The notes: generated from the letters alone by a model not told the origin. A stretch of 61,376 nt of DNA from a virus (IMGVR_UViG_3300001847_000619:1-61376); one strand, 5' to 3'; shown: positions 1,695 to 58,656, counted from the first letter of the stretch. Translations and numbers: made by a program.

Positions 1695-1988
1695 ATGGAA
1701 TATAAAAAATTTAAAGAAATCATTACTTCCCTTCAAGAATCAGACAAAAGAATAAACCAAGCAAATAAGTTAAAAATAGACCTAATAGACTTTGTAGATG
1801 AATATCATAGTATAATAACTAAACTATTTGAAGAAGTATATGGTAAAGAGGGATATGATTGGATAAGTTGGTTTTGTTATGAAAATAATTATGGTCAAGG
1901 GGAACTTAAAGGATGGGATAATAAAAAACCAATATGCTATGATATAAAAAGCCTTTGGGAATATGTAGAATCTAAAATTAAAAAATAA
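1695..1988 (+). CDS. hypothetical phage protein
   Basis: 97-aa ORF, A-rich leader, DWISWFCYE motif. Confidence 0.8.
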   Translation: MEYKKFKEIITSLQESDKRINQANKLKIDLIDFVDEYHSIITKLFEEVYGKEGYDWISWFCYENNYGQGELKGWDNKKPICYDIKSLWEYVESKIKK

Positions 1989-2248
1989 TGGCAAAAGCGA
2001 CACTTGAATTTGATTTAGACAATGAAGAAGACTCAATGTTATTTAGTAGAATGCATAAAGCTACAGATATGGCATCTGCATTATGGACTATACTTTATAA
2101 TACTAAAAAAGGTATTGTATGGGAAGTAGAAAAAAACGAAAAAGAATATAAAGAAAACCCATACGAATTAGTAGATAAAATATATGCTAAGCTATGGGAA
2201 ATAACTTCAGAAGAATATAATATTAATTTAGACAATTTAATAAACTAA
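1988..2248 (+). CDS. hypothetical phage protein (MAKATLEFDL start)
   Basis: 86-aa ORF coupled to upstream stop. Confidence 0.8.
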   Translation: MAKATLEFDLDNEEDSMLFSRMHKATDMASALWTILYNTKKGIVWEVEKNEKEYKENPYELVDKIYAKLWEITSEEYNINLDNLIN

Positions 2249-2249
2249 A

Positions 2250-2639
2250 ATGACACTAGCAGAAAACATCATTAGAGAATTTAACTATTCAGAAAAAAAA
2301 TCATTTAGCAAACAAGAGGTAGTTAGAATTATTAAGAATTGCACATCTTCCCATCACAGACCAGATTTAGAAAGCAATGGAGTATTAATAAGCCCAGAAA
2401 AAGATTTAATTTTTGTAAATGGAAAAGAAAAAAGAGTTCCTCAAAGAGTTTTTAATCTACTATATTATTTTATAGAAAACAAAAACAAAGTAGTAGAAAG
2501 GGGAAGTTTATTAAGAGATGTTTGGGGAACTGATATTGTTGTTTCTCATAGAACCATAGATGTTCATGTTTGTAAAATAAGAAACTTAGATATTCCCTTT
2601 ATAAAAACATTAAAACACGCATATATATGGCAGGAATAG
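2250..2639 (+). CDS. OmpR/PhoB-type winged-helix DNA-binding protein without receiver domain
   Basis: FNLLYYFIENKNKVVERGSLLRDVWG...RTIDVHVCKIR matches Trans_reg_C pattern. Confidence 0.85.
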   Translation: MTLAENIIREFNYSEKKSFSKQEVVRIIKNCTSSHHRPDLESNGVLISPEKDLIFVNGKEKRVPQRVFNLLYYFIENKNKVVERGSLLRDVWGTDIVVSHRTIDVHVCKIRNLDIPFIKTLKHAYIWQE

Positions 2640-2692
2640 TTGTCTTTTGTATCTTTACTGCTAGAATAAACCTTACATATAAACTATAAACA

Positions 2693-2800
2693 ATGATAAA
2701 ATTTACATCTATACTTATAGTAGCTGTTTTATTAAGTACTACTGCATATATTGTACTTAAAATAATTAGCTCTGATTACGATAGCGATAAAGAAAATTAA
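2693..2800 (+). CDS. 35-aa single-TM peptide
   Basis: manual translation MIKFTSILIVAVLLSTTAYIVLKIISS... Confidence 0.5.
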   Translation: MIKFTSILIVAVLLSTTAYIVLKIISSDYDSDKEN

Positions 2801-2803
2801 TAA

Positions 2804-2890
2804 ATGATAGCTAAGATTCTTATTTATTTTGCATTTTTATTTTGGTATGGTATTGGATATATATTTGGGAAGTACCGAGATAAAGATTAA
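2804..2890 (+). CDS. 28-aa single-TM peptide
   Basis: manual translation MIAKILIYFAFLFWYGIGYIFGKYRDKD. Confidence 0.5.
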   Translation: MIAKILIYFAFLFWYGIGYIFGKYRDKD

Positions 2891-2914
2891 ATTGTATTAT
2901 TAAATAAGAACGAA

Positions 2915-3109
2915 ATGAAAGGGAGCTTTTGTGAATATAATTTTCATGACTGGTCTTTAATTAAAAACATATATGTAAAGGATGGGGCTTTTGATGTTGG
3001 ATGCTTTAGATTGTGTTCAAGATGTAAAACCCTAGTTCAAATAAATGAAGAGGAGTTTGATTTAAACTCTGATACTTTTATAGAGGATGAGTATTTCTTT
3101 TATAACTAA
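2915..3109 (+). CDS. small Cys/His zinc-binding protein
   Basis: C-x4-H...CxxC pattern (FCEYNFHDW...CSRC). Confidence 0.65.
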   Translation: MKGSFCEYNFHDWSLIKNIYVKDGAFDVGCFRLCSRCKTLVQINEEEFDLNSDTFIEDEYFFYN

Positions 3110-3558
3110 TGGCAAATTATGATTTTAATAAGGATTTGATTATTGGAAACAAGGGGGAAGAAGTTGTATTAAATGACTTAATTTCCCTTGGAGCTATTGT
3201 ATTGATAAATAGAACAGATAATAGCGATTATGACTTTATGGTTTCCCAAAATGGGAATAATATAACTTATGAGTGTAAAACTGACTTCTTCCCAGACACA
3301 GGAAATATTTTCATAGAAACAAAATGCAGAGGTAAAGATTCAGGAATATATGTAACTAAAGCAGATTGGTTTGTTACCTATTTTACATCTACAAATGAAA
3401 TATGGTATATAAAAACTAAAGACCTAAAAGAACTTATAGAAAATGTTCCCCATAAAAAAACAAAAAACGCTGGAGATAAGGGAAGTGGAACTGAAGGATA
3501 TTTAGTAAGAAAGTCAAAGTTTAGAAATAATTTTATAATTAGAAAAGTATTACAATAA
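3109..3558 (+). CDS. PD-(D/E)XK restriction-endonuclease-like protein
   Basis: GE...YDF...YECKTD...GNIFIE catalytic pattern. Confidence 0.65.
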   Translation: MANYDFNKDLIIGNKGEEVVLNDLISLGAIVLINRTDNSDYDFMVSQNGNNITYECKTDFFPDTGNIFIETKCRGKDSGIYVTKADWFVTYFTSTNEIWYIKTKDLKELIENVPHKKTKNAGDKGSGTEGYLVRKSKFRNNFIIRKVLQ

Positions 3559-4128
3559 TTTAGATTCTACTATTTTAAGTTTTGCTCTATAATCTATAAG
3601 AAGTTGTTTTAGTTCTTCCCTGCTATATTTATATATTTCTCTGCTTTCTTCTCTTAATTGTTCGGGAAGTCCTGGGTGTTCTTCATTTAATCTTTTGGTA
3701 TACTCTTCCATATTGCCATGCATATTGCAATTACAATTAGGGCATTGTGGTTTCCCATTTCTAGAATCCCACCTAAGTAATGTATCTGAACGCTTAATAT
3801 AATGACCACATTGTAGGTACTTCCAATGGTCTTTCTTCCCACAAGTATAACATTCTGCAATCCCTTTATTATTAGATTCTCTTATTCTTATGTAACGGGA
3901 AAAAGTAAAATCTAAATCATTAATCAATGATTGCCTTTCAGATAATCCATCATCACAAATAAGCCTCCTTAGTTTTGTTTTTAAGTGTGCCTTTTCTGTA
4001 TATTGCTTTGCTTTTTGTTGATTTCTACATGGGATACAATATAAGTTTTTCCCGTTCTTAACAACATTAACATCTCTATCTCCACATTCACTACAATTTC
4101 CAAATTTACTTTTAGGTATCATATTCAT
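3550..4128 (-). CDS. ninG: NinG/Rap-family recombination nuclease with N-terminal zinc finger
   Basis: FSRYIRIRE, CYTCG, CGHY, LRWD..N...QCPNCN motifs. Confidence 0.85.
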   Translation of the reverse strand: MNMIPKSKFGNCSECGDRDVNVVKNGKNLYCIPCRNQQKAKQYTEKAHLKTKLRRLICDDGLSERQSLINDLDFTFSRYIRIRESNNKGIAECYTCGKKDHWKYLQCGHYIKRSDTLLRWDSRNGKPQCPNCNCNMHGNMEEYTKRLNEEHPGLPEQLREESREIYKYSREELKQLLIDYRAKLKIVESKLL

Positions 4129-5997: not shown

Positions 5998-7396
5998 AGA
6001 CAAAATACCACCTCAATCAGCAGAAATTGAAGAAGCAATCATTGGAGCTCTTTTGTTAAATTCTGACTCTTTAAACCTCGCAATGTCAAAATTATTCGAG
6101 GATATGTTTTACAGAATCGATTATAAGGCTATTTTTAAGGCAATAGAGACACTTTATGACACCAACCAAGGGATTGACCTTATAACAGTAATTGAGGAGC
6201 TTAAAAGGCAAAATAAACTTGAAGAGGCAGGGGGAAGTTATGGGGTAGTAAAAACCACAAATTCTGTAGTTAGTTCTGCAAACATCGAAAGTCACATTTT
6301 AATTTTATCAGAATTGTACTTAAAAAGACAGATGATAAAAATTTGCCATGAAGGTTTTTCTAAGTCTTTTGATGACGAAACTGATGTTTTTGATTTGATA
6401 AGCAATACTGATGATAAAATTCAGAAAGCTCAAGAAAGAGTTATTGCTGGATTGTCAAAAAATATTGAGTATTTTGGGATGAAGGTTTTAGAACAGCATG
6501 CAACTGTTAAAGAAACTGGAGTGTTAGGTATTAAGACGGGAATTGATGAGTTAGATAAGGCTACTAATGGTTTAGTATCTCCAGATTTGATGATTATTGC
6601 TGCTAGACCAGGTGCTGGAAAAACCAGTTGTGCGTTATCATTAACTTATAATACTTCTGTTCTTGGAGATATTCCTTGTGCTTGGTTTAGTTTAGAGATG
6701 GATGGTGTTCAGCTTGTAAGAAGATTAGTTTCTATGGATACAGGTATTCCTCATGAAAGAATAAGGAACGGGAAGACCTCAAATGAAGAGGATAAAATGA
6801 TAGGTCAATCTATTGATAAAATTAGTTCTTCAAAGATATTTATCGAGGATAAAACTAGTATGAATATTAGAGATATAAGGACTAGGGCTTCCCTCTTGAA
6901 AAAGAAAAATAACATAGGATATATCATAGTAGATTATATTCAGTTAATGAGTGGTGTTGATGCCAAGGGGAAAAACAGAGAACAAATAGTTTCAGATATA
7001 AGCAGAGGATTAAAATGTATAGCAAAAGAACTTGAAATACCAGTTATAGCATTAAGTCAATTAAGTAGAGCAGTAGAATCAAGACCTGATAAAATGCCAC
7101 AACTAAGCGACCTAAGAGAATCTGGAGCTATAGAACAAGATGCAGATAGTGTTTTATTTTTAATGCGACCAGAATATTACAACATGACAGACCCTATTGA
7201 AATAGGAGATGTACAATTTCCTGTTCAGAAATTAGCAATTTGCTCTATAGCAAAGAATAGACATGGCTCAACAAGAAATATAGCTATGGAATTTACAGGG
7301 AATACAATGCATTTTAAAAACCATCATCTTTTAGAAAAAACATCACTTATAAATCAACCTTCTAGCAATTGGAAACCATTAAATTCTGAAATATAA
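5990..7396 (+). CDS. dnaB: replicative DNA helicase DnaB
   Basis: PPQS.EIE, AARPGAGKT Walker A, VDYIQL, LSQLSR, DLRESGAIEQDAD, AKNRHG. Confidence 0.97.
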   Translation: MIKDKIPPQSAEIEEAIIGALLLNSDSLNLAMSKLFEDMFYRIDYKAIFKAIETLYDTNQGIDLITVIEELKRQNKLEEAGGSYGVVKTTNSVVSSANIESHILILSELYLKRQMIKICHEGFSKSFDDETDVFDLISNTDDKIQKAQERVIAGLSKNIEYFGMKVLEQHATVKETGVLGIKTGIDELDKATNGLVSPDLMIIAARPGAGKTSCALSLTYNTSVLGDIPCAWFSLEMDGVQLVRRLVSMDTGIPHERIRNGKTSNEEDKMIGQSIDKISSSKIFIEDKTSMNIRDIRTRASLLKKKNNIGYIIVDYIQLMSGVDAKGKNREQIVSDISRGLKCIAKELEIPVIALSQLSRAVESRPDKMPQLSDLRESGAIEQDADSVLFLMRPEYYNMTDPIEIGDVQFPVQKLAICSIAKNRHGSTRNIAMEFTGNTMHFKNHHLLEKTSLINQPSSNWKPLNSEI

Positions 7397-7770: not shown

Positions 7771-8832
7771 ATGAAATTTAATTATAAATGGAATTTAAAA
7801 GACATTGTATTTACTAAAGATAAAGGTAAAGTGTTTAGTTGTTTTGCTTGTGGCGGAGGTAGTTCTATGGGATATAAGCTTGCAGGATTTGATGTAATAG
7901 GTTGCAATGAAATTGACCCAAAAATGATGGAATGTTATATTACTAATCATAATCCTAAATACTCTTATTTAGAGCCAATACAGTCATTTAAGTTAAGGGA
8001 AGATTTGCCAAAAGAATTATATGAATTAGATATACTTGATGGAAGTCCACCTTGTAGTAGTTTTTCAATGGCAGGAAATAGAGAAAAAGATTGGGGAAAA
8101 GAAAAAAAGTTTAGAGAAGGACAAGCAGAACAAGTTTTAGATACATTGTTTTTTGATTTTATAGATTTAGCAAAAAAACTTCAACCAAAAGTAGTAGTTG
8201 CTGAAAACGTAAAAGGAATATTATTAGGAGATGCTAAAAACTATGTTATTGAGATTTACAAACAATTAGATGAAGCTGGTTATTATGTTCAGCATTTTTT
8301 ACTTGATGCTTCTAAAATGGGAGTGCCACAACGTAGAGAAAGAGTTTTTTTTATTGGGTTAAGAAAAGATTTAGCAAATCCATTTTTATTTCAAAAAGAT
8401 ATGTTTACTCAATCAGTTAAACTTGAATTGAATTTTAATGAAAAAGAAATATTTTTTGGAGAGTTTAAAGATGAAAATGGTCGTGAACTTTCTAATAATA
8501 TGAAAAAGATATGGAATGGTAAAAAAGATGGAGATACATCAATGGAACAATCTTGTTTTAGATTAGAAGGTAGACGTAGTTTTTTTTCTCAAAGCTATTT
8601 ATATAAAAATAAAGTTTGCCCTACAATAACAAGTCATGAAGATAGTCTCGTTTTATTTGATGCTCCAAAATATACAAGCAAAGATGAAGTTTGTAAAATT
8701 GGCTCATTCCCCTTGGATTATAACTTTGTAAAATCAAAACCACATTATTTAATAGGAATGAGTGTGCCACCATTAATGGTTGCTCAAATAGCATCTAATA
8801 TTTATCAACAATGGTTATCTAAAATAAAGTAA
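7771..8832 (+). CDS. DNA (cytosine-5) methyltransferase, orphan
   Basis: FACGGG motif I, GSPPC motif IV, ENV motif VI, PQRRER motif VIII, IGMSV motif X. Confidence 0.93.
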   Translation: MKFNYKWNLKDIVFTKDKGKVFSCFACGGGSSMGYKLAGFDVIGCNEIDPKMMECYITNHNPKYSYLEPIQSFKLREDLPKELYELDILDGSPPCSSFSMAGNREKDWGKEKKFREGQAEQVLDTLFFDFIDLAKKLQPKVVVAENVKGILLGDAKNYVIEIYKQLDEAGYYVQHFLLDASKMGVPQRRERVFFIGLRKDLANPFLFQKDMFTQSVKLELNFNEKEIFFGEFKDENGRELSNNMKKIWNGKKDGDTSMEQSCFRLEGRRSFFSQSYLYKNKVCPTITSHEDSLVLFDAPKYTSKDEVCKIGSFPLDYNFVKSKPHYLIGMSVPPLMVAQIASNIYQQWLSKIK

Positions 8833-9839: not shown

Positions 9840-10118
9840 ATGAAACTAAAGCCAGTAGGAAGTAAATTACTTGTTCTTCCCCTTGAAACAAAAAACTACG
9901 TAACTAATACTAACATTGAATTAGTTGAAACAGAATTAGCAAGAGCTAAAGTTGTAGAAGTGTCAGATGAGCTTTCAAATATTTATAAGATTGGAGATAT
10001 TGTAATGTATCCAGATAAAGCAGGGATTCTTCAAATTTACAATGGAGATAAATGCCTTTGGTTAAATGGAATGGGATTTCCAAATGGAGATGTTTGGGCT
10101 ATAACTGATGAAAATTAA
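9840..10118 (+). CDS. GroES-like co-chaperonin
   Basis: MKLKPVGSKLLV...AKVVEVS...KIGDIVMY. Confidence 0.8.
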   Translation: MKLKPVGSKLLVLPLETKNYVTNTNIELVETELARAKVVEVSDELSNIYKIGDIVMYPDKAGILQIYNGDKCLWLNGMGFPNGDVWAITDEN

Positions 10119-10121: not shown

Positions 10122-10844
10122 ATGTCAAAAATACTTGTAAAGTATGCATCAAGGGGAAGACCAAAAAAATTTTTAGCTGGGCTTGAAAACATATATGCTA
10201 CTTGTTCTAATGTAGAGCAAATAAGAGTATTAGTAACAGCAGACATAGACGATAAGTCAATGTGTAATGAAGAAATGAGAGATAAGATACAATCATTTCC
10301 GAATTGCAAAGTAATATATGGCACATCTAAAAATAAAATAGATGCTATAAATAGGGATTTATATATTTTACCAAATGGATTTGAAGATTGGACTATATTA
10401 GCTAATTTTTCAGACGATATGAGATGGACGGTTCCATATTGGGATGAATATATAATATCTGACTTTAAGCAAAATTGTGATGACTATTCTGGATATATGG
10501 CATATTTAGACCCAGATACGCATGGAGTTTTAAGTACATTATTTATTGCAGGAAGAAAGTGGGTTGATACATTTGGATTTATTTACGACCCAAAGTTTGT
10601 TTCTTTATTTTGTGATAATCTTGTTGAAGATTGTGCTAAAAAATTAGGTAAGTATTTTTATAATTCTTTATCAATATATAGACATTTTAATCCAGCATAT
10701 AACTATCCTGATTTTCAAAGAGATGAAATGTTTAATGAACAACAAAGAATAGGGTGGGATGTTGACCAAAAGTTATACCATAAAATACATGAAGAGGGAC
10801 TTGATAAATATTTAGAACAATTTAATATTGAAAAATTAAAATAA
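10122..10844 (+). CDS. GT-A (GT2-like) glycosyltransferase
   Basis: ASRGRP, KIDAIN, FSDDM, FCDN, RH motifs. Confidence 0.8.
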   Translation: MSKILVKYASRGRPKKFLAGLENIYATCSNVEQIRVLVTADIDDKSMCNEEMRDKIQSFPNCKVIYGTSKNKIDAINRDLYILPNGFEDWTILANFSDDMRWTVPYWDEYIISDFKQNCDDYSGYMAYLDPDTHGVLSTLFIAGRKWVDTFGFIYDPKFVSLFCDNLVEDCAKKLGKYFYNSLSIYRHFNPAYNYPDFQRDEMFNEQQRIGWDVDQKLYHKIHEEGLDKYLEQFNIEKLK

Positions 10845-10847
10845 TTC

Positions 10848-11444
10848 ATGACTTCCCCACTATTAACAATAATGCTTCCTACAACAATAGATAGAAGAAA
10901 TATATTTTATCCATTGTTAGAAGAAATACAAAGACAAATAAAAGAAAACAAATACGAAAATACGGTTGAAGTAATAATAGATGAAGATAATAAAGAAAAG
11001 TCAATAGGGAAAAAAAGGCAAGATTTATTAGAAAAAGCAAGGGGAAAATATGTTGTTGGAATAGATTCGGACGATTGGATTGCAGAAGATTATTTGGACT
11101 GTATCGTAACTTCCCTTCAAGAAAATCCTGCAATAGAACATATAGGTTTTTTAGAAGATTGCAATATTAATGGAGAAAAGTCAATTTCAATATTTAGTAT
11201 AAGAAATAAACTTTGGGCTGAAAACCAAGACGGATACGACCACATAAGATGTGCTAATCCCAAATCTGTAATATTAAGAGAAAAAGCATTAAAAATAGGG
11301 TTTGAAGATAGTAGATATGGGGAAGACAGGGTGTTTAGCGAAGCTGTTACAGCTATTTTAACATCAGAAGTTTTTATTAATAAGCCATTATACAAATATA
11401 GATATATCAGTAGTTCACATAATGAAAGATATGGAATAATATAA
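10848..11444 (+). CDS. GT2-family glycosyltransferase
   Basis: LLTIMLPT, GKKRQ.LL..ARGKYV..IDSDD, YGED. Confidence 0.88.
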   Translation: MTSPLLTIMLPTTIDRRNIFYPLLEEIQRQIKENKYENTVEVIIDEDNKEKSIGKKRQDLLEKARGKYVVGIDSDDWIAEDYLDCIVTSLQENPAIEHIGFLEDCNINGEKSISIFSIRNKLWAENQDGYDHIRCANPKSVILREKALKIGFEDSRYGEDRVFSEAVTAILTSEVFINKPLYKYRYISSSHNERYGII

Positions 11445-11447
11445 ATT

Positions 11448-12131
11448 ATGGAAAACATAGGTAAAAAAGCAGTTATTATTAGTGCAGGAATAGGAGGATG
11501 GTATGCTCAAGGAGTATCAAGGCTTGAGAGGTCTTTGTTATTTGAAGGATGGGCGGGAGGTATATTGACATGGAAAGATGAATATCCTATAAATAGTCAT
11601 AAGCATGAGGACTTCCCTTACTACATGAAAATAGCTGCATTTGAAGAGGCTTTAAGAAGAGGATATACGCATATATTATGGCTTGATGCATCATTTTGGG
11701 CAGTAAAAAACCCAATGAAAATGTTTGACTTAATAAATGACCAGGGGTATTATTTTTTTAGTAGTGGATATAATTTAGCTCAATCTGTAAATGATAATGC
11801 ATTAGATTATGTAGGATTAAATAGGGATGATGCAGAAAAAATAATAGAATGGGCTTCTGGATGCGTTGGAATTAATTTTGAAAATGAAGATGGGAAAAAC
11901 TTGTACAATAAATGGAGAGAGTTTATGGATGCTGGTTTAAGTAAGGGAAGTAGACTACACGACAATCAAAGTGCAGACCCAAGATTTTTATTTCATAGGC
12001 AAGACCAAAGCTGCCTATCGCTTGCTTGTTGGAGTCTTGGATTAAGCAATAAAAAAGGACTTGATATGGTTTCTTATAAGGGAACGGGGTATAATGAAAA
12101 TGAATTAATATTTTTTATAGGAGGTATTTAA
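11448..12131 (+). CDS. GT-A nucleotide-sugar transferase
   Basis: MKIAAF, ILWLDASF, HRQDQS motifs. Confidence 0.75.
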   Translation: MENIGKKAVIISAGIGGWYAQGVSRLERSLLFEGWAGGILTWKDEYPINSHKHEDFPYYMKIAAFEEALRRGYTHILWLDASFWAVKNPMKMFDLINDQGYYFFSSGYNLAQSVNDNALDYVGLNRDDAEKIIEWASGCVGINFENEDGKNLYNKWREFMDAGLSKGSRLHDNQSADPRFLFHRQDQSCLSLACWSLGLSNKKGLDMVSYKGTGYNENELIFFIGGI

Positions 12132-12132
12132 T

Positions 12133-14400: not shown

Positions 14401-14954
14401 TACCACAAATACTTTATGATGATAGGAGAAGCGAGCTTTTCCCCTTGATAATACAAGAAATGCAAACTCAAGGAATATCTAAGTATAATTTTGTATCTCC
14501 TATACTAACAAGTGATGTAGTTAACTCAATAAATATATCTCAAAAAGAAATAATAAAAAAAGCTAAGGAGCAAGGGGAAAAAGAGGTATGCATAATGGAA
14601 CATGATATTTGGTTTCCACGTGAAACAGGATGGAAATATTTTATAGAAAATAAACCTTCTGATTATGATATTTACTTGGGAGGAAGTTATCTTATTGATT
14701 GCACAATAAACTATATAGCACCTATAACTAAAATAAATTCATACGTAGGACATCATTGTATAATTGTACATGAGAAATATTACGATAGGTTTTTAGAAAC
14801 GCCAGAAAACCTGCATATAGATACAGCTCAAGCAAATAAAGGAGATTTTTATTTATGCTATCCTATGCCAGCATTACAAAGACCTGGATTTAGTATGAAT
14901 AATAAGTCATTAGTTGATTACAATAAAATACTAGAAGAAAAGCATATTTTATGA
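14391..14954 (+). CDS. GT25-like glycosyltransferase
   Basis: R.E start, VCIMEHDI, YDIYLG, G.HC, HID, ALQRPGFS. Confidence 0.7.
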   Translation: MDIIPQILYDDRRSELFPLIIQEMQTQGISKYNFVSPILTSDVVNSINISQKEIIKKAKEQGEKEVCIMEHDIWFPRETGWKYFIENKPSDYDIYLGGSYLIDCTINYIAPITKINSYVGHHCIIVHEKYYDRFLETPENLHIDTAQANKGDFYLCYPMPALQRPGFSMNNKSLVDYNKILEEKHIL

Positions 14955-47500: not shown

Positions 47501-48561
47501 ACCATGTAAATGCAATGGGAGGAGCAAATAATAATATTGGAAATGATGTAAATGCATTTGGAGGAGGAGCTGCACAAAGTAATTCTGGAAGTGCTGTAAA
47601 TGCATTTGGAGGTTCTACTGCACAAGGAAATTCTGGAAGTAGTGTAAATGCATTTGGACCTTATGCTGCACAAGGAAATTCTGGAAGTAGTGTAAATGCA
47701 TTTGGACCTTATGCTGGACAAGGAAATATATTTTCAAATGTAAATTTATTTGGTCAAGAAGCATCGGCATCTGATAATAATCAAGTTGTTTTTTCAAAAT
47801 CAGCAGAAAATATTGTTAATGCAAGAATAGATTATAATTGTATAGATGCAAATCATAAATATAGTTTACCAAATAAAGATGGTTATTTTATGAATGCTAA
47901 TCTTCCAATAATAATAAATTCAGAAGATTCAAATGAAGTATACTTAACTAATCCAGATAATTATGAAGTAATAAATTTAAGAGATGATACATATTCAATG
48001 TTGCTTCACTTCCCTGACGCATCAAATGGATGTTTAAGTAATGGACAAAGAATGGTTATTACAAATAAAGTTATAGATAATAACAAAACAGGAGCAATAC
48101 AATTAGCAGGTAATAACATATTTTATAGAGGAACAAATATACCAGTTACAAATATAGGACCAGGAGAAACAGTTGAATTTTTAGCAGAAGTAGATGAAAA
48201 TAATAATGGTAATTGGAGAACCATTACTTCCCTTCCAGAACCAGCAGTTACTTTAGATATGGCTACATTGGGAAGTTATTATATTCATTCAAATGGAACA
48301 TATTTAATAACATCGCAAAGTGAGGGTACAATATATTTTCCTGCTCCATGTAACATGCAAGGTTCTAAAATAACATTGATAAACATTGCTGAAACTGATG
48401 TATATAACCAAGCAATAGAATCATTAGCTCCAAGTAATTGTGATAAATCTAAAATTGTAAATGCAAATTTAACTGAAATAACAGTTCAACAATTAGGAAC
48501 AAGCTCAACATATGTAGCAGTAGGAGATGCATGGTATAAAATTAGTTTTCAATCACCTTAA
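44554..48561 (+). CDS. modular fibre/adhesin-like protein with N-terminal signal peptide
   Basis: MKKIILLILLAFSFAITFS-Q; DT..LSNRINLK repeats; LQYNN.G.FGGD; 16-aa NSG..VNAFG repeats. Confidence 0.8.
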   Translation: MKKIILLILLAFSFAITFSQTYPVTQILGSPQTLVLSKGGLKADSSLIIPSFTDTNAANKSTYIKNYPGNIIRAGDQVYVRNANATKWLIFAQSGGISGTVTSISQGYGISNSPNPITTTGTIKVDTSVSGLSGKYVRILDTSVMLSKYLRKIDTATLSNRINLKVNISDTSSMLSSYLRKVDTVSLSNRINLKVNVSDTSSMLSPYLRKVDTTNKFVNSITRIPGKDSIIFYVNSNRYAIKDSSGGAGTVTRAVDTIYRTPGKDSIIFTINGIRRAIKDSLGVGGSGTPGGPTNSLQYNNNGNFGGDANLIYNGNSLGIGNPPSLYSKLVINDTFHSVFNNNDNIPNANIWLNNVNYGQNTIFSSINNLNSAKWRSDYFGNSYLVAYAGNHYFLTQSDYGESEIAPKLGLEIINNGDVAIGDSLFWKSSNNRLSINAGTNPNSALTVNGADGINFKGLPKTNYNYVLAYDSASGQLGYKTSTGGSGTVTKAVDTIYRIPGKDSIIYTINGTRRAMKDSVGKPAGQNYSLQYNNSGTFGGDAKFLYNGSNLFLGDVSSSYSKLCVGDTFTTIQNSYGSSNAQIQLQNNDFNGATAIYSEIGGGPVGKWRSDYNGSNYWVAYGGNHYFYTNGDIPDGGTSKLTIFNNGNVAVGDSLFWKSSNNRLSINAGTNPNSALTVNGADGINFKGLPKTNYNYVLAYDSASGQLGYKTSTGGSGTVTRAVDTIYRTPGKDSIIFTINGIRRAIKDSIGSGGGGGISSYGYFFDKSEQCTDSSTTGQSILLEIKDTAIANGFHIRSGSKGEIIADSTGLFNFQISVQFWGSEDRGPYDASVWMKKNGHVIRDAIKAIKWIDGFAVLTYNNILSINIGDTIEYNWTHAELRDNLALICIKPGENKVLLEEEKGASVTLSITPVLGGGGSQDLQSVLNIGHSLINERNYQGTDAGSGNTGNYVNAFGLEAAKNNSGNDVNAIGTGSAYGNNGNHVNAMGGANNNIGNDVNAFGGGAAQSNSGSAVNAFGGSTAQGNSGSSVNAFGPYAAQGNSGSSVNAFGPYAGQGNIFSNVNLFGQEASASDNNQVVFSKSAENIVNARIDYNCIDANHKYSLPNKDGYFMNANLPIIINSEDSNEVYLTNPDNYEVINLRDDTYSMLLHFPDASNGCLSNGQRMVITNKVIDNNKTGAIQLAGNNIFYRGTNIPVTNIGPGETVEFLAEVDENNNGNWRTITSLPEPAVTLDMATLGSYYIHSNGTYLITSQSEGTIYFPAPCNMQGSKITLINIAETDVYNQAIESLAPSNCDKSKIVNANLTEITVQQLGTSSTYVAVGDAWYKISFQSP
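45298..46800 (+). repeat. ~99-bp identical direct repeat (45298-45396 and 46702-46800), diverged third copy near 46012-46110
   Basis: encodes TVTRAVDTIYRTPGKDSIIFTINGIRRAIKDS. Confidence 0.85.
45815..46706 (+). repeat. ~202-bp identical direct repeat inside fibre gene (45815-46016 and 46505-46706)
   Basis: by-eye alignment, offset 690. Confidence 0.85.
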
Positions 48562-50382: not shown

Positions 50383-51381
50383 ATGACAAAGTCAGACGTA
50401 GCTAAAAAGTATAGGGCTAAATATCCCGACTTCCCTACATTAAAATTAGCTAGAATCATGTACAAAGAAAACAATCTTTTATTTACTACAATAGAAGATG
50501 CTAGAAGTACATTAAGATATATAGAAGGTAAGATTGGAGAAAAAAATAGAGTAAGTAAAGTAAAAGAAAGCGAGTTTTTTAAAGAAGAAGAAAGACCTAA
50601 GAATCCATATAATTTACCACAAAGTTATAAGCAAGATAGAACTCCATTCGTATTGCCAATTGGATGCAATAATATTCTTTTAATATCAGACCTACATATT
50701 CCCTACCATGATATAGATGCAATAACAATAGCCTTAGATTATGGCAAAGAACATAATGTAAATACTATATTTATTAATGGAGATTTGATAGATAATGCTC
50801 AAGTTAGTAGATTTGAAAAAGACCTTAAAAAACGTAGTGTAAGGGAAGAATTTGATGCGACAAAGAAATTCTTAGTAGAGTTAAGGAAAGCATTTCCTAA
50901 TGCAGAAATATATTGGTTAAAAGGGAATCATTGTGCCCGCTGGGAGAAATTCTTAGCACAAAAAGTTACAGAAATTTGGGATGACCCTTATTTCCATTTA
51001 GAAGAAAGATTGAGATTGCATGAAGAAAGAATAAAAATACTTGATGATTCAACTCTTGTTAAGGCAGGGAAGTTATCTATTACGCATGGGCATCACATAT
51101 TTAAGGGTATATTTTCCCCTGTATCTCCAGCAAGGGGAGCTTACATGAAAGCAAAGCAAAGTGTTATAGTTGGGCATTTGCATAGAACTTCTCAAAATTC
51201 AGAAATGGATTTAGATGGTAATGTAGTTAGTTGTTGGTCTCAAGGTTGTTTGTGTGAGCTTAGAACAAACTATTCTCCTATAGCAAGTAATTCGCAACAT
51301 GGATTTGCTCATATTCTTGTTCAACCTAATGGAGATTACAATGTACATAATTATCAGATAATCAAGGGGAAGATACATTAA
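50383..51381 (+). CDS. calcineurin-like metallophosphoesterase
   Basis: SDLH, NGDLID, GNH, HGH, GHLH. Confidence 0.9.
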   Translation: MTKSDVAKKYRAKYPDFPTLKLARIMYKENNLLFTTIEDARSTLRYIEGKIGEKNRVSKVKESEFFKEEERPKNPYNLPQSYKQDRTPFVLPIGCNNILLISDLHIPYHDIDAITIALDYGKEHNVNTIFINGDLIDNAQVSRFEKDLKKRSVREEFDATKKFLVELRKAFPNAEIYWLKGNHCARWEKFLAQKVTEIWDDPYFHLEERLRLHEERIKILDDSTLVKAGKLSITHGHHIFKGIFSPVSPARGAYMKAKQSVIVGHLHRTSQNSEMDLDGNVVSCWSQGCLCELRTNYSPIASNSQHGFAHILVQPNGDYNVHNYQIIKGKIH

Positions 51382-51460: not shown

Positions 51461-51637
51461 ATGAAAAACAAAATAGAATTATTATTACAAGGACTTCCCA
51501 TTTCAGAAAAAATAAGTATATTAGAATCGCTTTGTAAAAAGTATAGAAGAGAAAATAGCGTTAGAATAAATGCTAAACAAATGGGAAGAAGAGTAGATGA
51601 AGAACGACCAGATTTACAAACCTTAAAATCACGATGA
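51461..51637 (+). CDS. 58-aa hypothetical protein
   Basis: manual translation MKNKIELLLQGLPISEKI...; ATGA overlap with next gene. Confidence 0.6.
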   Translation: MKNKIELLLQGLPISEKISILESLCKKYRRENSVRINAKQMGRRVDEERPDLQTLKSR

Positions 51638-51996
51638 AAAAAAGTAAAAAGATTAAGCTATCTACTTATAACTGTAATTTAATTGTAATAATAACAGATA
51701 GATTAACAGAAGAAGTAAATAGTATTTATAAGAGGCTTAATCATAACGAATCTTTTCAAGGGGAAGCAGAAGGGGTATTGCTTACAATAGATATAGATAA
51801 TTACTATCTTATATATGACATAAATTACCTTAGCCATAATACCATAGCTCACGAAATATATCATGCAGTAGTAAAGGTAACAGAGGATAGAGATATTGTA
51901 GAGGAAGAGCCACAAGCTTGGTTATGTGGTTATTTAGCTGAAGAAGTATACAAGTATATTCAGAAGAATAATTTTAAAATAATCAAGGGAAAGTAA
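51634..51996 (+). CDS. HExxH zincin-like protein
   Basis: TIAHEIYHAV...EEPQAW. Confidence 0.75.
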   Translation: MKKSKKIKLSTYNCNLIVIITDRLTEEVNSIYKRLNHNESFQGEAEGVLLTIDIDNYYLIYDINYLSHNTIAHEIYHAVVKVTEDRDIVEEEPQAWLCGYLAEEVYKYIQKNNFKIIKGK

Positions 51997-52090: not shown

Positions 52091-52369
52091 CTAAATTTCA
52101 GTATCTTTTTTATCAATTTTAACATCTGTTTTTTGAATTATTAGTGTTATGTCTTTCCCATTTTCCATTATTACTATTTCATCGGGCAAATGAGTAAATA
52201 CTGCATTTTTTAAACTACTTGGATACTCACTCATCTTCCCCTTGCAATAACTTGTTATATCCCCCAATGAATAGGATGCTTTACCTTCATTATGTATTGC
52301 GATTAAACCAAATAAATCGTTATTTAATAAACCTCTTCTTTTAATGATAGGTTGTAATTCTGTTGTCAT
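52091..52369 (-). CDS. hypothetical protein
   Basis: 92-aa ORF, A-rich leader. Confidence 0.65.
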   Translation of the reverse strand: MTTELQPIIKRRGLLNNDLFGLIAIHNEGKASYSLGDITSYCKGKMSEYPSSLKNAVFTHLPDEIVIMENGKDITLIIQKTDVKIDKKDTEI

Positions 52370-53200: not shown

Positions 53201-53425
53201 TTATATGTTTTTTACTTCGTTTTTTACATCTTCCCAATATTGAATAGTAATAAATTTATTACCTTCCAATGAATCCCCAAATGTGTTTATTTCTTCTATG
53301 TTATTATCGCATACCATTAAGCAACACTCTTTGGATTTTCCCCTTGCTTCTATATAATCACATAATCTTGAATATCCTTTTAAGAATCTTTCATATAATT
53401 CGTAGGCTTTTTCTTGTGCATTCAT
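53201..53425 (-). CDS. hypothetical protein paralogous to 52991-53188
   Basis: MNAQEKAYELY...YWEDVKNEV; start moved to MNAQ. Confidence 0.7.
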   Translation of the reverse strand: MNAQEKAYELYERFLKGYSRLCDYIEARGKSKECCLMVCDNNIEEINTFGDSLEGNKFITIQYWEDVKNEVKNI

Positions 53426-53429: not shown

Positions 53430-53660
53430 TTATATAATTTCAATGTTAGTGTATATTGTTTTTAATTCATTTAGCAAGGGGAAATAATACTCTGGCTCTA
53501 CTTCCCTTGACTCCTTAATATAATCCTCTGAACATAATGAATGTTGACCTATTGTAGAATAACAGCTCATAAATTTGCCAAAAATGTTTTTAACTATTTC
53601 AGTAGGGAAAACAGCAAATAGGTCAGCGTTTTCTTCGTTGTATAAAAATTTAACTTTCAT
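53430..53660 (-). CDS. hypothetical phage protein (AVFP...CY...GQHS)
   Basis: 76-aa ORF. Confidence 0.8.
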   Translation of the reverse strand: MKVKFLYNEENADLFAVFPTEIVKNIFGKFMSCYSTIGQHSLCSEDYIKESREVEPEYYFPLLNELKTIYTNIEII

Positions 53661-53677: not shown

Positions 53678-53926
53678 TTAATAAATTGATAATGAATTTA
53701 AAATAACATTGTATTGCCTTTCATTCAGCATGGGTAATATATCTACTCCACTTCCTGCAATTATTATTTCTACGTTATTAATATCTACTATTGAATTGCC
53801 TTTAAAATCTTCCCCAACATGATAAGTTACTGTTAATTCAATGCCGTCTTGGTCAATAATTGTTTCGTATTTACGTTCCATATCTTTAAATTTTAAGGTT
53901 GTTATTGTGCTAAAAATTGTTGCCAT
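53678..53926 (-). CDS. hypothetical protein (true start possibly 53881)
   Basis: ORF track. Confidence 0.6.
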   Translation of the reverse strand: MATIFSTITTLKFKDMERKYETIIDQDGIELTVTYHVGEDFKGNSIVDINNVEIIIAGSGVDILPMLNERQYNVILNSLSIY

Positions 53927-54254
53927 GATTCTTTTTTGTGGCTTGTCTCAATTTGTTTTTTTAGCTTTTTAATTTTGTTTTTTAGTGCAAATTTATTTGA
54001 GGCGTTCCCCTTGTTTAATTTAATTGTAAGGGCTTTAATTTGTTGGATGTCTTTTAGTGTATTCATATTGTTATTGTTTTATTTTTATAAAATGTACGTT
54101 ATCTATTTTAATTAGTTCCCAATTAGTGTTTTTGCCTTGTTGCAATAACTTATAAATATAACCTACATTTACTCCTATTCCATTTCTTTTGCTTGGGTAT
54201 TGGTCGGCAAAGTTTTTTACTGTCATTAATTTTTCTTTTGTTTTGGTCATGAGT

Positions 54255-54503
54255 TTAATTGTTTATATGGTTTATAATTTTTTTTATGGTTCGGGAAATT
54301 CTTACGTAGTTTTTACTTTCAATATCATCAATTAAACTGCTGTAAGCAAAATAATTGTCGCTTATAACTTCCCCTTGATTATTAAGCATAATTACACTCG
54401 CATTTTCATCACATTCTTTGTAATTAACGTAATAATGAAAGTCATTTGTTTGTAAGGCATGATAATAAGTGCCGAAGTAATGGCGAAATAAAGATTTTTT
54501 CAT
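54255..54503 (-). CDS. hypothetical early protein
   Basis: start moved to MKKSLFRH, which follows a promoter and ACACTAAAAA leader. Confidence 0.7.
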   Translation of the reverse strand: MKKSLFRHYFGTYYHALQTNDFHYYVNYKECDENASVIMLNNQGEVISDNYFAYSSLIDDIESKNYVRISRTIKKIINHINN

Positions 54504-54846: not shown

Positions 54847-54881
54847 GCAAGGGGAAAATGTTTTCAAGGTCTTCCCCTTGC
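54847..54881 (-). terminator. hairpin formed by two inverted TTCCCCTTG motifs
   Basis: GCAAGGGGAA-N15-TTCCCCTTGC. Confidence 0.5.
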
Positions 54882-55087: not shown

Positions 55088-55110
55088 GATAGTTTGTTTT
55101 TAGTGGTTAA

Positions 55111-55338
55111 TTAATTATTACATTTTATTAAAAATTTATATTTTTTATCTTGCATTATTATAAAATTTTCAATTTTCCCCTTGCTATTAAATAAGTCAAA
55201 TATTTTGCATTTATTACCTGTAAATATGTTTGTATTTTCTTTTATTTCTATATTGCTATAAAAATAATCGTTAACAACTTTATTAATTCCATGTATTGTT
55301 GGCGAAGTTGCAAGTAAATTAAAGTTTGTATTTTTCAT
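55111..55338 (-). CDS. hypothetical early protein
   Basis: 75 aa; ACACTAAAAAA leader. Confidence 0.7.
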   Translation of the reverse strand: MKNTNFNLLATSPTIHGINKVVNDYFYSNIEIKENTNIFTGNKCKIFDLFNSKGKIENFIIMQDKKYKFLIKCNN

Positions 55339-55364
55339 GATATTATTTTTTAGTGTTTAATTAA

Positions 55365-55556
55365 TTATCTTAATAATATATTTATGTATTCCAATTCAAT
55401 AGTGTATTTAAACATTATTTCGTTGGGTAGTTTTATTTCGCTGTTAAATTCCTGTATTAATTTGTTTTTACAGGTTTTTAGTTGCTCTGCGGTTAAATTT
55501 CCGTAAAATTTAACAAGGTTTTTACCTATGTAGTGTGTTATTTTATCAATAGTCAT
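55365..55556 (-). CDS. hypothetical early protein
   Basis: 63 aa, tandem array. Confidence 0.65.
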   Translation of the reverse strand: MTIDKITHYIGKNLVKFYGNLTAEQLKTCKNKLIQEFNSEIKLPNEIMFKYTIELEYINILLR

Positions 55557-55580
55557 AATATTATTTTTTTTAGTTGTTAA

Positions 55581-55769
55581 TTAACTATTTCTTTTGTCTA
55601 ATATTCTACAAATAGTATTTATTTGTTTTTGCACTGTTTCAACTAATTCGGCTTTTTCGCTTATTACGTGCCTATAATCATATAATTTAGCTCTAATATT
55701 AGCCAAACAGTCTAAAATTTCCTCCAGCTCATAGGTGCTTTTTTTCTTTAATTCAATTATGCTGTTCAT
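55581..55769 (-). CDS. hypothetical early protein
   Basis: 62 aa, coiled-coil-like. Confidence 0.65.
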   Translation of the reverse strand: MNSIIELKKKSTYELEEILDCLANIRAKLYDYRHVISEKAELVETVQKQINTICRILDKRNS

Positions 55770-55983: not shown

Positions 55984-56187
55984 TTTATATTATTTTTTTA
56001 TAAATTAAAATATTTTATTAATTCATTTTCTTGCTTGTCAGTAAGTGTTAATTCGCCTTGGGTGTATAAATTTAAAATTTCGTTATCGCTTGGAGTGTAT
56101 CCGTATTTTTTAAAATAATTTGCTTTTATTTTTTGCATGGTAATATTTTTAAAGTGTTTAAAATGTTTTATTTGTTCCCCTTGATTA

Positions 56188-56599: not shown

Positions 56600-56642
56600 A
56601 AAAAAAATAATAAGCAAGGGGAACGGGTAAAATTTCCCCTTG
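56600..56642 (-). terminator. terminator formed by inverted TTCCCCTTG motifs
   Basis: CAAGGGGAA-N10-TTCCCCTTG, followed on the minus strand by CTTATTATTTTTTT. Confidence 0.6.
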
Positions 56643-56651
56643 ATAAAAAGA

Positions 56652-57150: not shown

Positions 57151-57255
57151 TTAATTACAAAAAACAAAGTGAATAAAAAACATAATTTTAATAAGTAAGT
57201 AAATAAACAAGGATAAAACAGGAATGAGGCAAAAAAGGAATTTCAATTTTTTCAT
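57151..57255 (-). CDS. 34-aa hydrophobic membrane peptide, first gene of leftward operon
   Basis: manual translation MKKLKFLFCLIPVLSLFIYLLIKIMFFIHFVFCN; leader ACACTAAAAAAACTATCATG. Confidence 0.55.
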   Translation of the reverse strand: MKKLKFLFCLIPVLSLFIYLLIKIMFFIHFVFCN

Positions 57256-57284
57256 GATAGTTTTTTTAGTGTGTTGATAAAAAA

Positions 57285-57316
57285 CAAAGATAAGAGTAAA
57301 TACTTTTACTTTCAAT
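57285..57316 (-). promoter_or_regulatory. early leftward promoter
   Basis: TATCTTTG at 57292-57285 with ATTG 20 nt upstream. Confidence 0.65.
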
Positions 57317-57349
57317 CAATGTAAACAACTTTTAACAAAATTTTAACAA

Positions 57350-57800
57350 TTAGCTAAATAGTTTAGTAAAGCTAAAAAATTTAGCATTTCTCTTTTTCCC
57401 CTTGTTCCATACAATAACCCCCCACCCAATAAAACAAAATAAAACAAACCAAACAAACCAACGCCAAAAACCCCCATTTTCCCCTTGCTAAATACCTTAG
57501 TAATGCTTACTAATATCCTTAGCATACAACACAATACCCCCGTAACGAATTTATAGCCAATTTAACGCCCTTTATTCGCCTTTCCTTTGTCTTCCCCTTG
57601 CCCAACAAATTAAACCCCATAAAATCGCCTTAAATTAAGCCGTTAAAAATTCAATCCCATATTTAAAAACCAAAAACCGAAACCGAAACCCAAAAACAAA
57701 CTCCCGCCCCTTTGCCGTTTACAAATTCCCAAACCGAGAGCCGCCCCCCTATTCCTAGCGTACAATGTCCCCCCCTCTAAGAGTTGTATAGGTTTTTTAT
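57350..57800. other. non-coding, strongly C/A-skewed divergence region; candidate genome terminus / pac region
   Basis: G-poor plus strand, C-runs, AAAC and AAACCG repeats, no credible ORF. Confidence 0.45.
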
Positions 57801-57849
57801 TTAAAAATACGTTTTGAAAAATGAACGGGAAAAACTCGTAGCTTTACAA

Positions 57850-57907
57850 TCTCATGGATAGTTTTTTTTAGTGTACCCCTGGTGTTTCTACATTGGGGGT
57901 TTTCTTG
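57850..57907 (+). ncRNA. candidate small RNA 3, antisense to early-gene leaders
   Basis: seed CATGGATAGTTTTTTTTAGTGT then ACCCCTGGTG-TTTCTA-CATTGGGGGT-TTTCTT terminator; TAGCTTTA -7-like element at 57839. Confidence 0.65.
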
Positions 57908-57919
57908 TTAAAAAAAATA

Positions 57920-57951
57920 TTTGGATAATACAATCTACTTTTGTAGATTTG
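57920..57951 (+). promoter_or_regulatory. promoter of recombination operon
   Basis: TTTG-N20-TAGATTTG. Confidence 0.65.
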
Positions 57952-57972
57952 TGGGAACTAAAAAAATCCATT

Positions 57973-58656
57973 ATGACACTAAAAGAACAAATGCAAGATG
58001 CAGAAGCTATCTTTCAAAAGATAGACGCCTTTGTAAAAGAAGGTAAAATCAGCCAAGCTTACGAAGTTATTCAATCAGAAAATCCTCCTAATTCATGGCT
58101 TATTGAATTAGACTCTCGCTTAAAAAAAGGAGAAAAATACAAGTCTATTAAATTAGAATTATTAGAGGCGGCAGTAAGAAGAATATTTGGTGTTTGCGAA
58201 CTACAAACAATAGAAAATCCAGTTATTCATAGTGACAAATCTGGTACTATTTCTGTCACAATTATTGCAAAAATCGAAACAAAATATCTTGATGGAAAAC
58301 CCTATCCACTTGTGCTTTCAGGCATAGCAACAGAGATTGTAGATAGTGCAAAACTTCTTCCCCTTGCAACACCAAAGGCATCAAGTATGGCAGTTAAAAA
58401 CGCTATTAAACAATTAGGTAGATTATTTGGAAAGTATCTTAACAACGAATCAGAAGAACTGGAACTTCCCATACAATCAGATGACAATATGCTAACTCCA
58501 GAAGAAGAACTAAAAGCAATAACAGATGGCATAATAACTGCAAAAGCTATTAAAGATTTAAAATCATGGAGGCATCTTGTGTATCAAAAAAAGAATACAG
58601 AACTACAAGATTTATACGAATCAAAACTAAGACAACTACAAGTTGTAGTCAACTAA
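57973..58656 (+). CDS. Sak/Rad52-like single-strand annealing protein
   Basis: PKASSMAVKNAIKQLGRLFG..LN; start moved to MTLKEQ; next to exonuclease. Confidence 0.7.
   Translation: MTLKEQMQDAEAIFQKIDAFVKEGKISQAYEVIQSENPPNSWLIELDSRLKKGEKYKSIKLELLEAAVRRIFGVCELQTIENPVIHSDKSGTISVTIIAKIETKYLDGKPYPLVLSGIATEIVDSAKLLPLATPKASSMAVKNAIKQLGRLFGKYLNNESEELELPIQSDDNMLTPEEELKAITDGIITAKAIKDLKSWRHLVYQKKNTELQDLYESKLRQLQVVVN

Follow-up and report, generated by a model that had tools for sequence, protein, structure and literature searches.

A GGGAA word enriched on both DNA strands, with lineage-specific flanks, in a family of uncultured phages

Short words dispersed over whole genomes are known from several systems. 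DNA uptake sequences (DUS of the Neisseriaceae and USS, or uptake signal sequences, of the Pasteurellaceae) occur about once per kb and have a conserved core, known Chi sequences are short, G-rich and lineage-variable, and stoperators are 13-bp sites present in a few dozen copies per genome. Words of the highly iterated palindrome (HIP1) and very-short-patch repair (VSP) type are lineage-specific and hyper-abundant, possibly as a result of methyltransferase-linked repair bias. One study describes uptake sequences as short non-palindromic words found in both orientations, at permissive positions within genes, as inverted-pair stem-loops between genes, and in lineage dialects (PMC3630211); another describes Chi as over-represented in phage genomes beyond composition, at about 0.2 per kb (PMC3784561). 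Here we describe a word that shares several of these properties in the IMG/VR virus record IMGVR_UViG_3300001847_000619, a linear record of 61,376 bp (G+C 30.6%; CheckV completeness ∼80%) that was analyzed in its entirety and is referred to as the window, or as G000 in genome comparisons. The original prediction, a note made from this sequence, had pointed to an over-represented 9-mer, TTCCCCTTG/CAAGGGGAA. We find that the enrichment extends to a shorter core, GGGAA, and that it is a family-level feature, stronger than first described.

An exact search of both strands of the window returns 37 copies of the 9-mer, matching every coordinate listed earlier. Dinucleotide-preserving shuffles (n = 100) yield a mean of 0.57 copies and a maximum of three, in keeping with the earlier estimate of fewer than one. 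Twenty-nine copies lie in called genes, 22 of them sense and seven antisense, in all three frames; the other eight are in intergenic DNA (5.8% of the window), and the motif is thus present in both coding and non-coding DNA as had been claimed. Whole-codon shuffles give a mean of 8.7 copies, and synonymous-codon shuffles within genes (n = 300), which keep every protein and hence every dipeptide and leave the eight intergenic copies fixed in count, give a mean of 11.4 and a maximum of 16. The coding copies alone number 29 compared with about 3.4 after synonymous shuffling, and the antisense copies seven compared with 0.2. The excess thus persists under codon- and dipeptide-preserving shuffles, the check that had been proposed for it.

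The 9-mer is one form of a more abundant sequence. The most over-represented hexamers in the window are CTTCCC/GGGAAG (109 copies compared with a mononucleotide expectation of 8.1), GGGGAA (87) and CAAGGG (68), and the variants noted in the original prediction are common, with TCCCGTTCC/GGAACGGGA present ten times and the five-G form CAAGGGGGA seven times. The base after GGGAAG is A or T in 102 of its 109 occurrences, which lie on both strands and throughout the record, and 37 of the 129 runs of exactly four G are in the context CAA-GGGG-AA. Synonymous shuffles of the window (n = 300) reduce GGGAAG from 109 to 35.6 and GGGAA from 266 to 138. The 9-mer is therefore genuinely enriched, but it is not the unit, which is a GGGAA core with flanks that differ between lineages.

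These lineages were recovered by searching IMG/VR with the large terminase (TerL) and capsid proteins, which gave 6 and 39 loci, respectively; 13 whole records were taken for comparison. Nine of the 14 genomes, the window and eight related contigs, are rich in the core and five are poor. The rich genomes are G000, G001 and G002, together with a second clade (G008 to G013) having 72–75% capsid identity, and all are incomplete contigs (44–80%). The observed/expected ratio for GGGAA is 4.16 in the nine rich genomes compared with 1.60 in the poor genomes G003, G016 and G017. Enrichment is missing from all five poor genomes, including G003, whose TerL is of the same type (69% identity), which also carries the p106 gene and which serves as a negative control (35 copies of GGGAAG compared with 29 in synonymous shuffles); G014 has more G-runs, without clear flanks.

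The flanks form dialects. G000 and G001 prefer A at positions −3 and −2 (NAAN-GGGAA, as in CAAG-, GAAC- and GGAC-GGGAA), and the second clade has GTNN-GGGAA, with G at −4 in 55–62% and T at −3 in 57–62% of all GGGAA, giving forms such as GTTTGGGAA, GTTGGGGAA, GTAGGGGAA and GTCAGGGAA. G002 has no upstream preference and favors GT downstream, as in GGGGAAGT (GGGAAGT). The exact 9-mer count accordingly falls from 37 in G000 to 17 in G001, one in G002 and two in G003, with zero to two in the other ten records.

Individual copies are also conserved in position. We scored GGGAA at aligned orthologous codons against composition-matched 5-mers, and found it kept in 76% of cases (controls 52%) from G011 to G012, 79% (49%) from G008 to G010, 47% (25%) from G000 to G002, 35% (24%) from G000 to G001, and 24% (15%) across the clades from G000 to G013. 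There is no excess from G000 to the poor genome G003 (9% compared with 13%). Glycine and tryptophan codons may inflate GGGAA conservation somewhat, although the lack of excess toward G003 disfavors this as its cause. Eleven of the G000 9-mers can be aligned with G001, in which four are identical and seven retain the core.

The word behaves as a property of duplex DNA. In the genes of G000, GGGAA is present 158 times in sense orientation compared with 98.6 in synonymous shuffles (an excess of 59), and 90 times in antisense orientation compared with 18.9 (an excess of 71). In four second-clade genomes the form GTNNGGGAA is found 146 times sense (23.6 in synonymous shuffles) and 162 times antisense (10.7), and its 493 copies over the six second-clade genomes, in all frames, divide into 202 sense, 216 antisense and 75 intergenic, the last lying within some 7% of the sequence. 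The choice of codons varies with context as building the word requires: in the nine rich genomes proline is encoded by CCC in 291 of 584 instances (50%) following a codon ending in TT, compared with 301 of 4395 (7%) elsewhere, whereas in three poor genomes the figures are 28 of 180 (16%) and 326 of 2335 (14%). The coding strand of the window is purine-rich and sense copies outnumber antisense ones, as a coding or compositional artefact would have it; against that stand the dinucleotide and synonymous shuffles, the strand test and the proline codons, which exclude it, along with the occurrence of the word in all frames, on both strands and between genes and its absence from the negative-control relatives, and we give such an artefact almost no credence. 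The general part of the earlier proposal, a signal at the DNA level, is supported for one maintained by selection or by drive, in that the excess survives protein-preserving shuffles, is of similar absolute size in both orientations, draws on context-dependent synonymous codons, and shows conservation of orthologous copies above controls.

Between genes the word also forms pairs. The window has two perfect intergenic inverted pairs and one GGGAAG/CTTCCC hairpin past the capsid gene (Table 1), and perfect hairpins, for example GTAGGGGAA-GAAA-TTCCCCTAC, are found in the second clade; among second-clade pairs within 30 nt, 79 face each other and 20 are back to back. Facing copies inside genes do not have complementary bases at the free flank positions, so hairpin formation is not the conserved property there. 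We considered intrinsic terminators or hairpin repeats and rejected them, since only the post-capsid hairpin has a terminator-like score and 29 of the 37 9-mers are single and inside genes. We note separately that a perfect 22-nt palindrome, GTAGGGGAAATATTTCCCCTAC, is present in many large viral contigs (about 9–172 kb) that lack word enrichment (loci L095, L099, L105, L108, L114, L119, L126, L139–L141, L144, L146, L155, L159, L162 and L167); 14 of these 16 contigs come from one IMG/VR collection number, and the palindrome may be a shared terminator or other site of another phage group.

The closest match to these statistics is with DNA uptake sequences, which the word resembles in density, occurrence in both orientations, placement within genes, intergenic inverted pairs and dialects. 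On these grounds we favor, as a tentative possibility, the reading that this is a family-specific word recognized on duplex DNA by a specific factor acting on the whole phage chromosome. The 9-mer would then be the window phage's version of a family word whose core is GGGAA (often GGGAAG) and whose three to four flanking bases have drifted. Recognition would take place on double-stranded DNA whichever way the word points, with no dependence on transcription or translation, and the word would be kept genome-wide at about one per 230 bp (core) to one per 1.7 kb (9-mer). Copies could have accumulated as uptake sequences do, many of them weakly selected or driven, wherever coding allows, and the intergenic facing pairs would fold as hairpins. 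Uptake sequences belong to naturally transformable bacteria and are bound by a pilin receptor during uptake, whereas the window is from a lytic-looking phage, for which we infer an analogous step of packaging or entry. A protein reader, its encoding by the phage, and the process served are likewise what we infer; that process could be packaging, condensation or protection of the injected DNA. The original prediction had listed among its options a site bound by a DNA-coating or ejection protein, and this is the most plausible class, although the search for the reader itself came back empty.

Table 1. Positions of the core word, the 9-mers and candidate genes in the window.
Feature	Position	Strand	Remarks
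GGGAA/TTCCC and GGGAAG/CTTCCC	1–61376		266 and 109 copies over the whole record; mean gap 228 bp
9-mer (CAAGGGGAA)	1896–1904	+	coding, sense, frame 0
9-mer	6964–6972	+	DnaB gene, sense, frame 2
9-mer	8707–8715	−	C5 methyltransferase gene, antisense
9-mer	9877–9885	−	coding, antisense
9-mer	10150–10158	+	coding, sense, frame 1
9-mer	11038–11046	+	coding, sense, frame 1
9-mer	13849–13857	+	epimerase gene, sense, frame 0
9-mer	14439–14447	−	coding, antisense
9-mer	14571–14579	+	coding, sense, frame 0
9-mer	23789–23797	−	coding, antisense
9-mer	24057–24065	+	coding, sense
9-mer	26145–26153	+	coding, sense
9-mer	26695–26703	+	giant gene, sense
9-mer	29020–29028	+	giant gene, sense
9-mer	29354–29362	+	giant gene, sense
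9-mer	29972–29980	−	giant gene, antisense
9-mer	30130–30138	+	giant gene, sense
9-mer	33709–33717	−	intergenic, gap between giant gene and p106
9-mer	35957–35965	+	TerL gene, sense
9-mer, then hairpin	42091–42121	+	intergenic; hairpin GGGGAAGTAGTGA/TCACTACTTCCC at 42094–42121, directly past capsid gene
9-mer	51363–51371	+	coding, sense
9-mer	51757–51765	+	coding, sense
9-mer	52236–52244	−	early minus-strand open reading frame (ORF), sense
9-mer	53338–53346	−	early ORF, sense
9-mer facing imperfect partner	53475–53508	+	partner CTTCCCTTG, 18 nt apart; within ORF 53430–53660
9-mer	54005–54013	−	early ORF, sense; contigs from run X5 show T>C at 54005
9-mer	54369–54377	−	early ORF, sense
Inverted pair	54847–54881		intergenic, between early ORFs; GCAAGGGGAA-N15-TTCCCCTTGC; 9-mers at 54848 and 54872
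9-mer	55175–55183	−	early ORF, sense
9-mer	56175–56183	−	intergenic, 37 nt upstream of start of ORF 55998–56138
Inverted pair	56614–56643		intergenic, between early ORFs; GCAAGGGGAA-N10-TTCCCCTTGA; 9-mers at 56615 and 56634
Three direct 9-mers	57396–57600	−	57396, 57479 and 57592; C-rich divergent non-coding region
9-mer	58358–58366	−	coding, antisense
p165, predicted Ftn-type ferritin gene	34098–34595	+	sole gene co-occurring with enrichment; beside TerL
Giant modular virion-module protein gene	26632–33702	+	2,356 aa; candidate injected polyvalent protein, given for context

The distribution of the 9-mer along the window bears on a role in transcription. Genes are on the plus strand up to 51.4 kb and are followed by about 20 small minus-strand ORFs (52.0–57.1 kb) and a 750-bp divergent non-coding region, after which plus-strand genes resume. 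Seventeen of the 37 copies are within 51.3–58.4 kb, 11.6% of the window, which agrees with the earlier count; this cluster was previously placed near the putative genome end, but the interval corresponds to the small early-type gene block and the divergent region and has no demonstrated end. Moreover, 28 copies carry CAAGGGGAA on the transcribed strand, and with the two intergenic pairs and the post-capsid hairpin this could indicate that the long form is an operator, a stoperator-like site or a hairpin element of the early block, the other copies being weaker instances. Two studies of Cluster A mycobacteriophages describe stoperators as asymmetric, genome-spread sites whose motifs vary with the repressor and track lineage (PMC9283540, PMC6550527), a further likeness, although one of the two also describes the sites as mostly in one orientation (PMC6550527). 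Stoperators belong to temperate phages and have a known repressor; here the antisense 9-mers are enriched too, the core excess is about equal per strand, and the 50 window proteins compared with Pfam and/or PHROGs include no match to a repressor family, so that a stoperator or dispersed operator fits the word as a whole poorly. Control of transcription would also leave unexplained hundreds of orientation-neutral core copies (109–266 for about 89 genes, far above any operon count), and just one motif hairpin is terminator-like. No repressor-like gene was recognized; the best hint is an HTH_58 match below cut-off (E 0.08) in the 58-aa protein at 51461–51637, which is present in six of the nine rich genomes, and neither this protein nor that at 53678–53926 has a significant family. 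We therefore regard transcription control as an improbable account of the word, while a regulatory role for the long form within the early block may exist.

Other features were seen in this part of the window. A 22-nt repeat, TTTTTAGTGGTTAATTAATTAT (91–100% identical), at 55097–55118, 55347–55368 and 55567–55588 marks the boundaries of consecutive small early ORFs at a spacing of 220–250 bp, and is probably a shared start or regulatory region. The non-coding tract at 57390–57790 (∼400 bp) is strongly C-rich and G-poor on the plus strand, with A/C-only runs (CCCCCC and AAACC repeats); it contains the three direct 9-mers, separates the divergent early block from the right-hand gene block, and may be an origin or leader region. 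The ORF call at 57343–57525, which overlaps the region of the direct copies, is doubtful.

A Chi-like site was the first suggestion of the original prediction. On this reading the host RecBCD/AddAB or another helicase-nuclease would recognize the word, and DNA ends or rolling-circle tails would be protected. The word is likewise short, G-rich, variable between lineages and enriched in phage DNA beyond composition, and a circularly permuted genome could make use of either orientation. Phages without RecBCD inhibitors are reported to over-represent Chi, at a density in Rec− phages of about 0.2 per kb (PMC3784561); the word is found at 0.6–4 per kb, three to 20 times denser. Chi has polarity, whereas the word is in excess to a similar extent in both orientations and shows no strand switch along the record beyond gene direction; polar architecture motifs of the type of FtsK-orienting polar sequences (KOPS) or SpoIIIE recognition sequences (SRS) were rejected for the same reason, since the strong strand skew they require is absent from the window. 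The second-clade word has two free positions, flanks differ between relatives as close as G000 and G002 (37 copies and one), and the window itself codes for an exonuclease, for RusA and NinG/Rap and, below threshold, for a Rad52-like protein. Chi is also enriched in its host, while none of 301 sampled Bacteroidia species genomes, a sample that may not include the true host, combines GGGAAG at a phage-like density with a high ratio relative to the reversed control. That ratio, read off a table, is about 0.3–2.5 in the 301 genomes compared with 5.4 in the window, where GGGAAG has a density of 1.8 copies per kb; two of the genomes (G196 and G110) are flagged as unpublished, and the result does not depend on either. 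Taken together these findings disfavor Chi, and we think such a site unlikely.

A Bacteroidota host is likely. The window TerL finds by tblastn only distant podophages of Flavobacterium, Cellulophaga and Tenacibaculum, all in the <60% band and at 29.5% in each of the 25 matches listed, and blastn with the terminase-portal region against a phage collection gave no match. An alignment scan of bacterial genomes with the capsid found two contigs of metagenome-assembled genomes (Bacteroidota, Bacteroidia) that are relatives of the poor type, and these assembled genomes are not enriched in the word. The epimerase was rejected as a pointer to the host because the best listed matches are 55–60% identical and 326 of 401 sampled Bacteroidia match at E≤1e-40, which gives no resolution. 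The record recurs in aquatic or freshwater metagenomes (six runs with contigs, from three studies, no RNA run being listed); these runs are known as contigs only, with 332 differences from the window, 40 of which are listed.

The word appears to be confined to this phage family. Two hairpin forms were used to scan 2.9 million viral contigs: GTAGGGGAA-N3-25-TTCCCCTAC returned 108 stretches, and among the 79 loci analyzed only contigs of the family are rich in GTNNGGGAA, while the CAAGGGGAA hairpin returned at least 120 stretches, and none of the 120 loci analyzed has more than five copies. Among the sequences examined, the word is thus restricted to the family of the window phage. A literature search of limited scope found no earlier mention of the word, nor of a motif like it in phages of Flavobacterium.

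The same observations can be approached from mutation rather than recognition. A context-specific bias of repair, mutation or gene conversion, encoded by phage or host, could make and preserve GGGAA words with no benefit to the phage, and neutral drive of this kind has been put forward for very-short-patch repair and highly iterated palindromes. It fits a word that is found wherever constraint permits and is denser in intergenic DNA, and that is not enriched in the capsid gene, the most conserved, which has 1.5–3.5 copies per kb whether the genome is rich or poor. Most single-substitution neighbors of GGGAA are mildly depleted (rich/poor ratios about 0.5–0.85), no reader gene was found, and the window encodes a C5 cytosine methyltransferase. 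However, the neighbors expected from deamination are not specifically depleted (AGGAA 0.86, GAGAA 1.32, GGAAA 0.84), excess shows a weak, non-significant trend with gene conservation (rho −0.20 to −0.44, p 0.18–0.34), and a constant core with flanks changing in step between lineages again implies a specific reader. We consider neutral drive rather improbable. Its methyltransferase-linked version, of the VSP or HIP1 type, was rejected: those words are palindromic and have a cognate methyltransferase, whereas the window word is asymmetric, its deamination neighbors show the ratios above (0.84–1.32), and no C5 methyltransferase is common to all carriers. The window gene (7771–8832; PF00145, E 1e-47) is within an insert missing at the same locus in G001, which is enriched nonetheless, and its only relative, in G011, is 27% identical.

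Heavy restriction pressure acts on this family. GATC (148 expected), GGCC (35), GCGC (20) and CGCG (6.4) are all absent from the window, CCGG occurs once (16), and GGACC is found six times over the nine rich genomes compared with 175. Similar avoidance is seen in most relatives but differs by lineage, with CTAG avoided in G003, G014 and G017, TCGA in G011–G013, and little avoidance in G002, G015 and G016, which suggests different host restriction repertoires. The word is not a by-product of this avoidance, because G002, in which GGGAAG enrichment is strongest, retains GATC (60), GGCC (21) and CCGG (37). Many modification and restriction specificities are non-palindromic, 5–9 bp long and include unspecified positions, much as the word does (in one clade for the last), so it could be a target or decoy for methylation, 7-deazaguanine or phosphorothioate modification, T5-like nicks, or BREX or type III-like defence. 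Known targets are normally avoided or neutral rather than enriched four- to nine-fold, and no modification gene tracks the trait; we see this as quite unlikely.

A search for the reader by gene profiling of the 14 genomes (blastp clusters and tblastn) identified a single gene, p165, in nine of nine rich and none of five poor genomes, and no other gene tracking the trait. In 24 capsid-anchored loci with a near-full-length TerL match, the eight with p165 are all rich and the 16 without it have no enrichment. The product matches PF00210 at 28.3 bits (cut-off 24.5), and a profile search of solved structures finds the Helicobacter-type ferritin 3bve (E 8e-20), all 60 listed matches being ferritin sequences, three of them engineered ferritin fusions. 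The AlphaFold2 model has five helices in a helical bundle (pLDDT 93). From sequence and model p165 is predicted to be a bacterial-type non-heme (Ftn) ferritin, a four-helix bundle plus E helix. Residues E21, Y28, E54, H57, E98 and Q130, which we take to be the ferroxidase site, are invariant in the nine sequences, and the center is apparently intact. The gene lies within the packaging module, between p106 and TerL in the window and upstream of p106 in the second clade, and it evolves fast (28–32% identity between clades compared with 70–74% for TerL); the atlas consulted assigns the ferritin to viral clusters.

GGG runs are the most oxidizable sites in DNA and are Fe(II) sites, and the co-occurrence of ferritin and word could accordingly mean that G-run-plus-purine words are sites of oxidation or iron binding, selected or tolerated because ferritin limits the damage. 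However, G-runs of three or more are only modestly commoner in rich genomes (1.55–1.73 times expectation) than in poor relatives (1.39–1.46), the lineage-specific flanks point to protein recognition rather than chemistry, and the correlation reflects one or two evolutionary events; a redox link by itself seems highly unlikely. In a broader version, freshwater Bacteroidota phages would mark their own chromosome with a dense, strand-neutral GGGAA 'self' word with fast dialects, read by the packaging machinery or an injected protective protein as a viral counterpart of DNA uptake sequences, and a co-inherited late-module ferritin would guard the G-run-rich DNA from iron-driven oxidation; we offer this as a long shot.

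Several results weigh against recognition of the word by a specific, phage-encoded factor. Profiling produced no reader protein, and for the ferritin the structure profile search found no DNA-binding homology. The giant virion-module proteins have domains that also occur in poor genomes, none being exclusive to rich ones; the window protein has no Pfam family, no meaningful match among solved structures and no recognizable domain. Proteins of this kind are 2,356–3,422 aa and highly modular (e.g. L011:8401–16869, minus strand); that of G002 has a ddrB-like ParB domain (E 8e-27) of the sort usual in injected polyvalent anti-defence proteins, and that of G009 a sub-threshold MatP_C match. The putative small terminase p106 is conserved in poor G003 and G016. 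We detected no helical phasing (10–11 bp) or regular spacing, and spacing is near random (coefficient of variation 0.89–1.05), so cooperative wrapping is not indicated. The association of gene and trait amounts to one or two evolutionary events because the rich genomes form only two clades, and the incompleteness of the rich contigs means that a reader gene may lie off-contig, making its absence unprovable. A host-encoded reader, or neutral repair drive, would give the same statistics.

The window further codes for a DnaD-like loader, DnaB helicase, two glycosyltransferases, an epimerase, virion proteins, TerL, portal, capsid protein and lysozyme; many small ORFs remain unannotated. The replication and sugar-modification modules were rejected as correlates of the word, being mosaic and not tracking the trait. 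The cluster at 10122–14954, comprising the two glycosyltransferases, the epimerase and unknown genes, is mostly common to G001 and all five poor genomes, is absent from second-clade contigs that retain its flanking genes, and may serve DNA or cell-surface sugar modification; the epimerase itself lacks homologues in all 13 relatives. A recombination-type module at 57871–61251 encodes a weak Rad52/22-like protein (below the Pfam cut-off), a Cas4/RecE-like exonuclease and RusA, none with a homologue in the 13 relatives, and a NinG/Rap-like endonuclease gene is near the left end (3550–4128, minus strand). A tail-fiber-like gene at 44554–48561 (1,335 aa) has internal repeats of ∼690 bp, the segments around 46005 and 46695 being near-identical. 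In contigs from other runs 1,531 bp of it are skipped (45212 to 46744), which suggests a length polymorphism. Two repeats in poor relatives are unrelated to the word, a long in-frame tandem hexamer coding repeat (GGAAAC/GGATAC) at G015:66925–67260, and 24-bp tandem repeats in which the G017 contig ends (G017:61700–61914).

Behind Chi, uptake sequences and stoperators alike, machinery came to light that discriminates between DNAs. The same statistical signature, with a conserved core, dialects and conservation of position, is present here in an uncultured phage family, and no known reader is in evidence. A reader, if there is one, would represent a new means by which a phage recognizes or protects its chromosome, with the dialects as a natural series for studying the evolution of specificity. 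If the word is instead the product of drive, the shaping of a viral genome by repair or conversion bias would be seen here with unusual clarity. In practical terms, the word is a sequence-only marker of this phage group in freshwater metagenomes.

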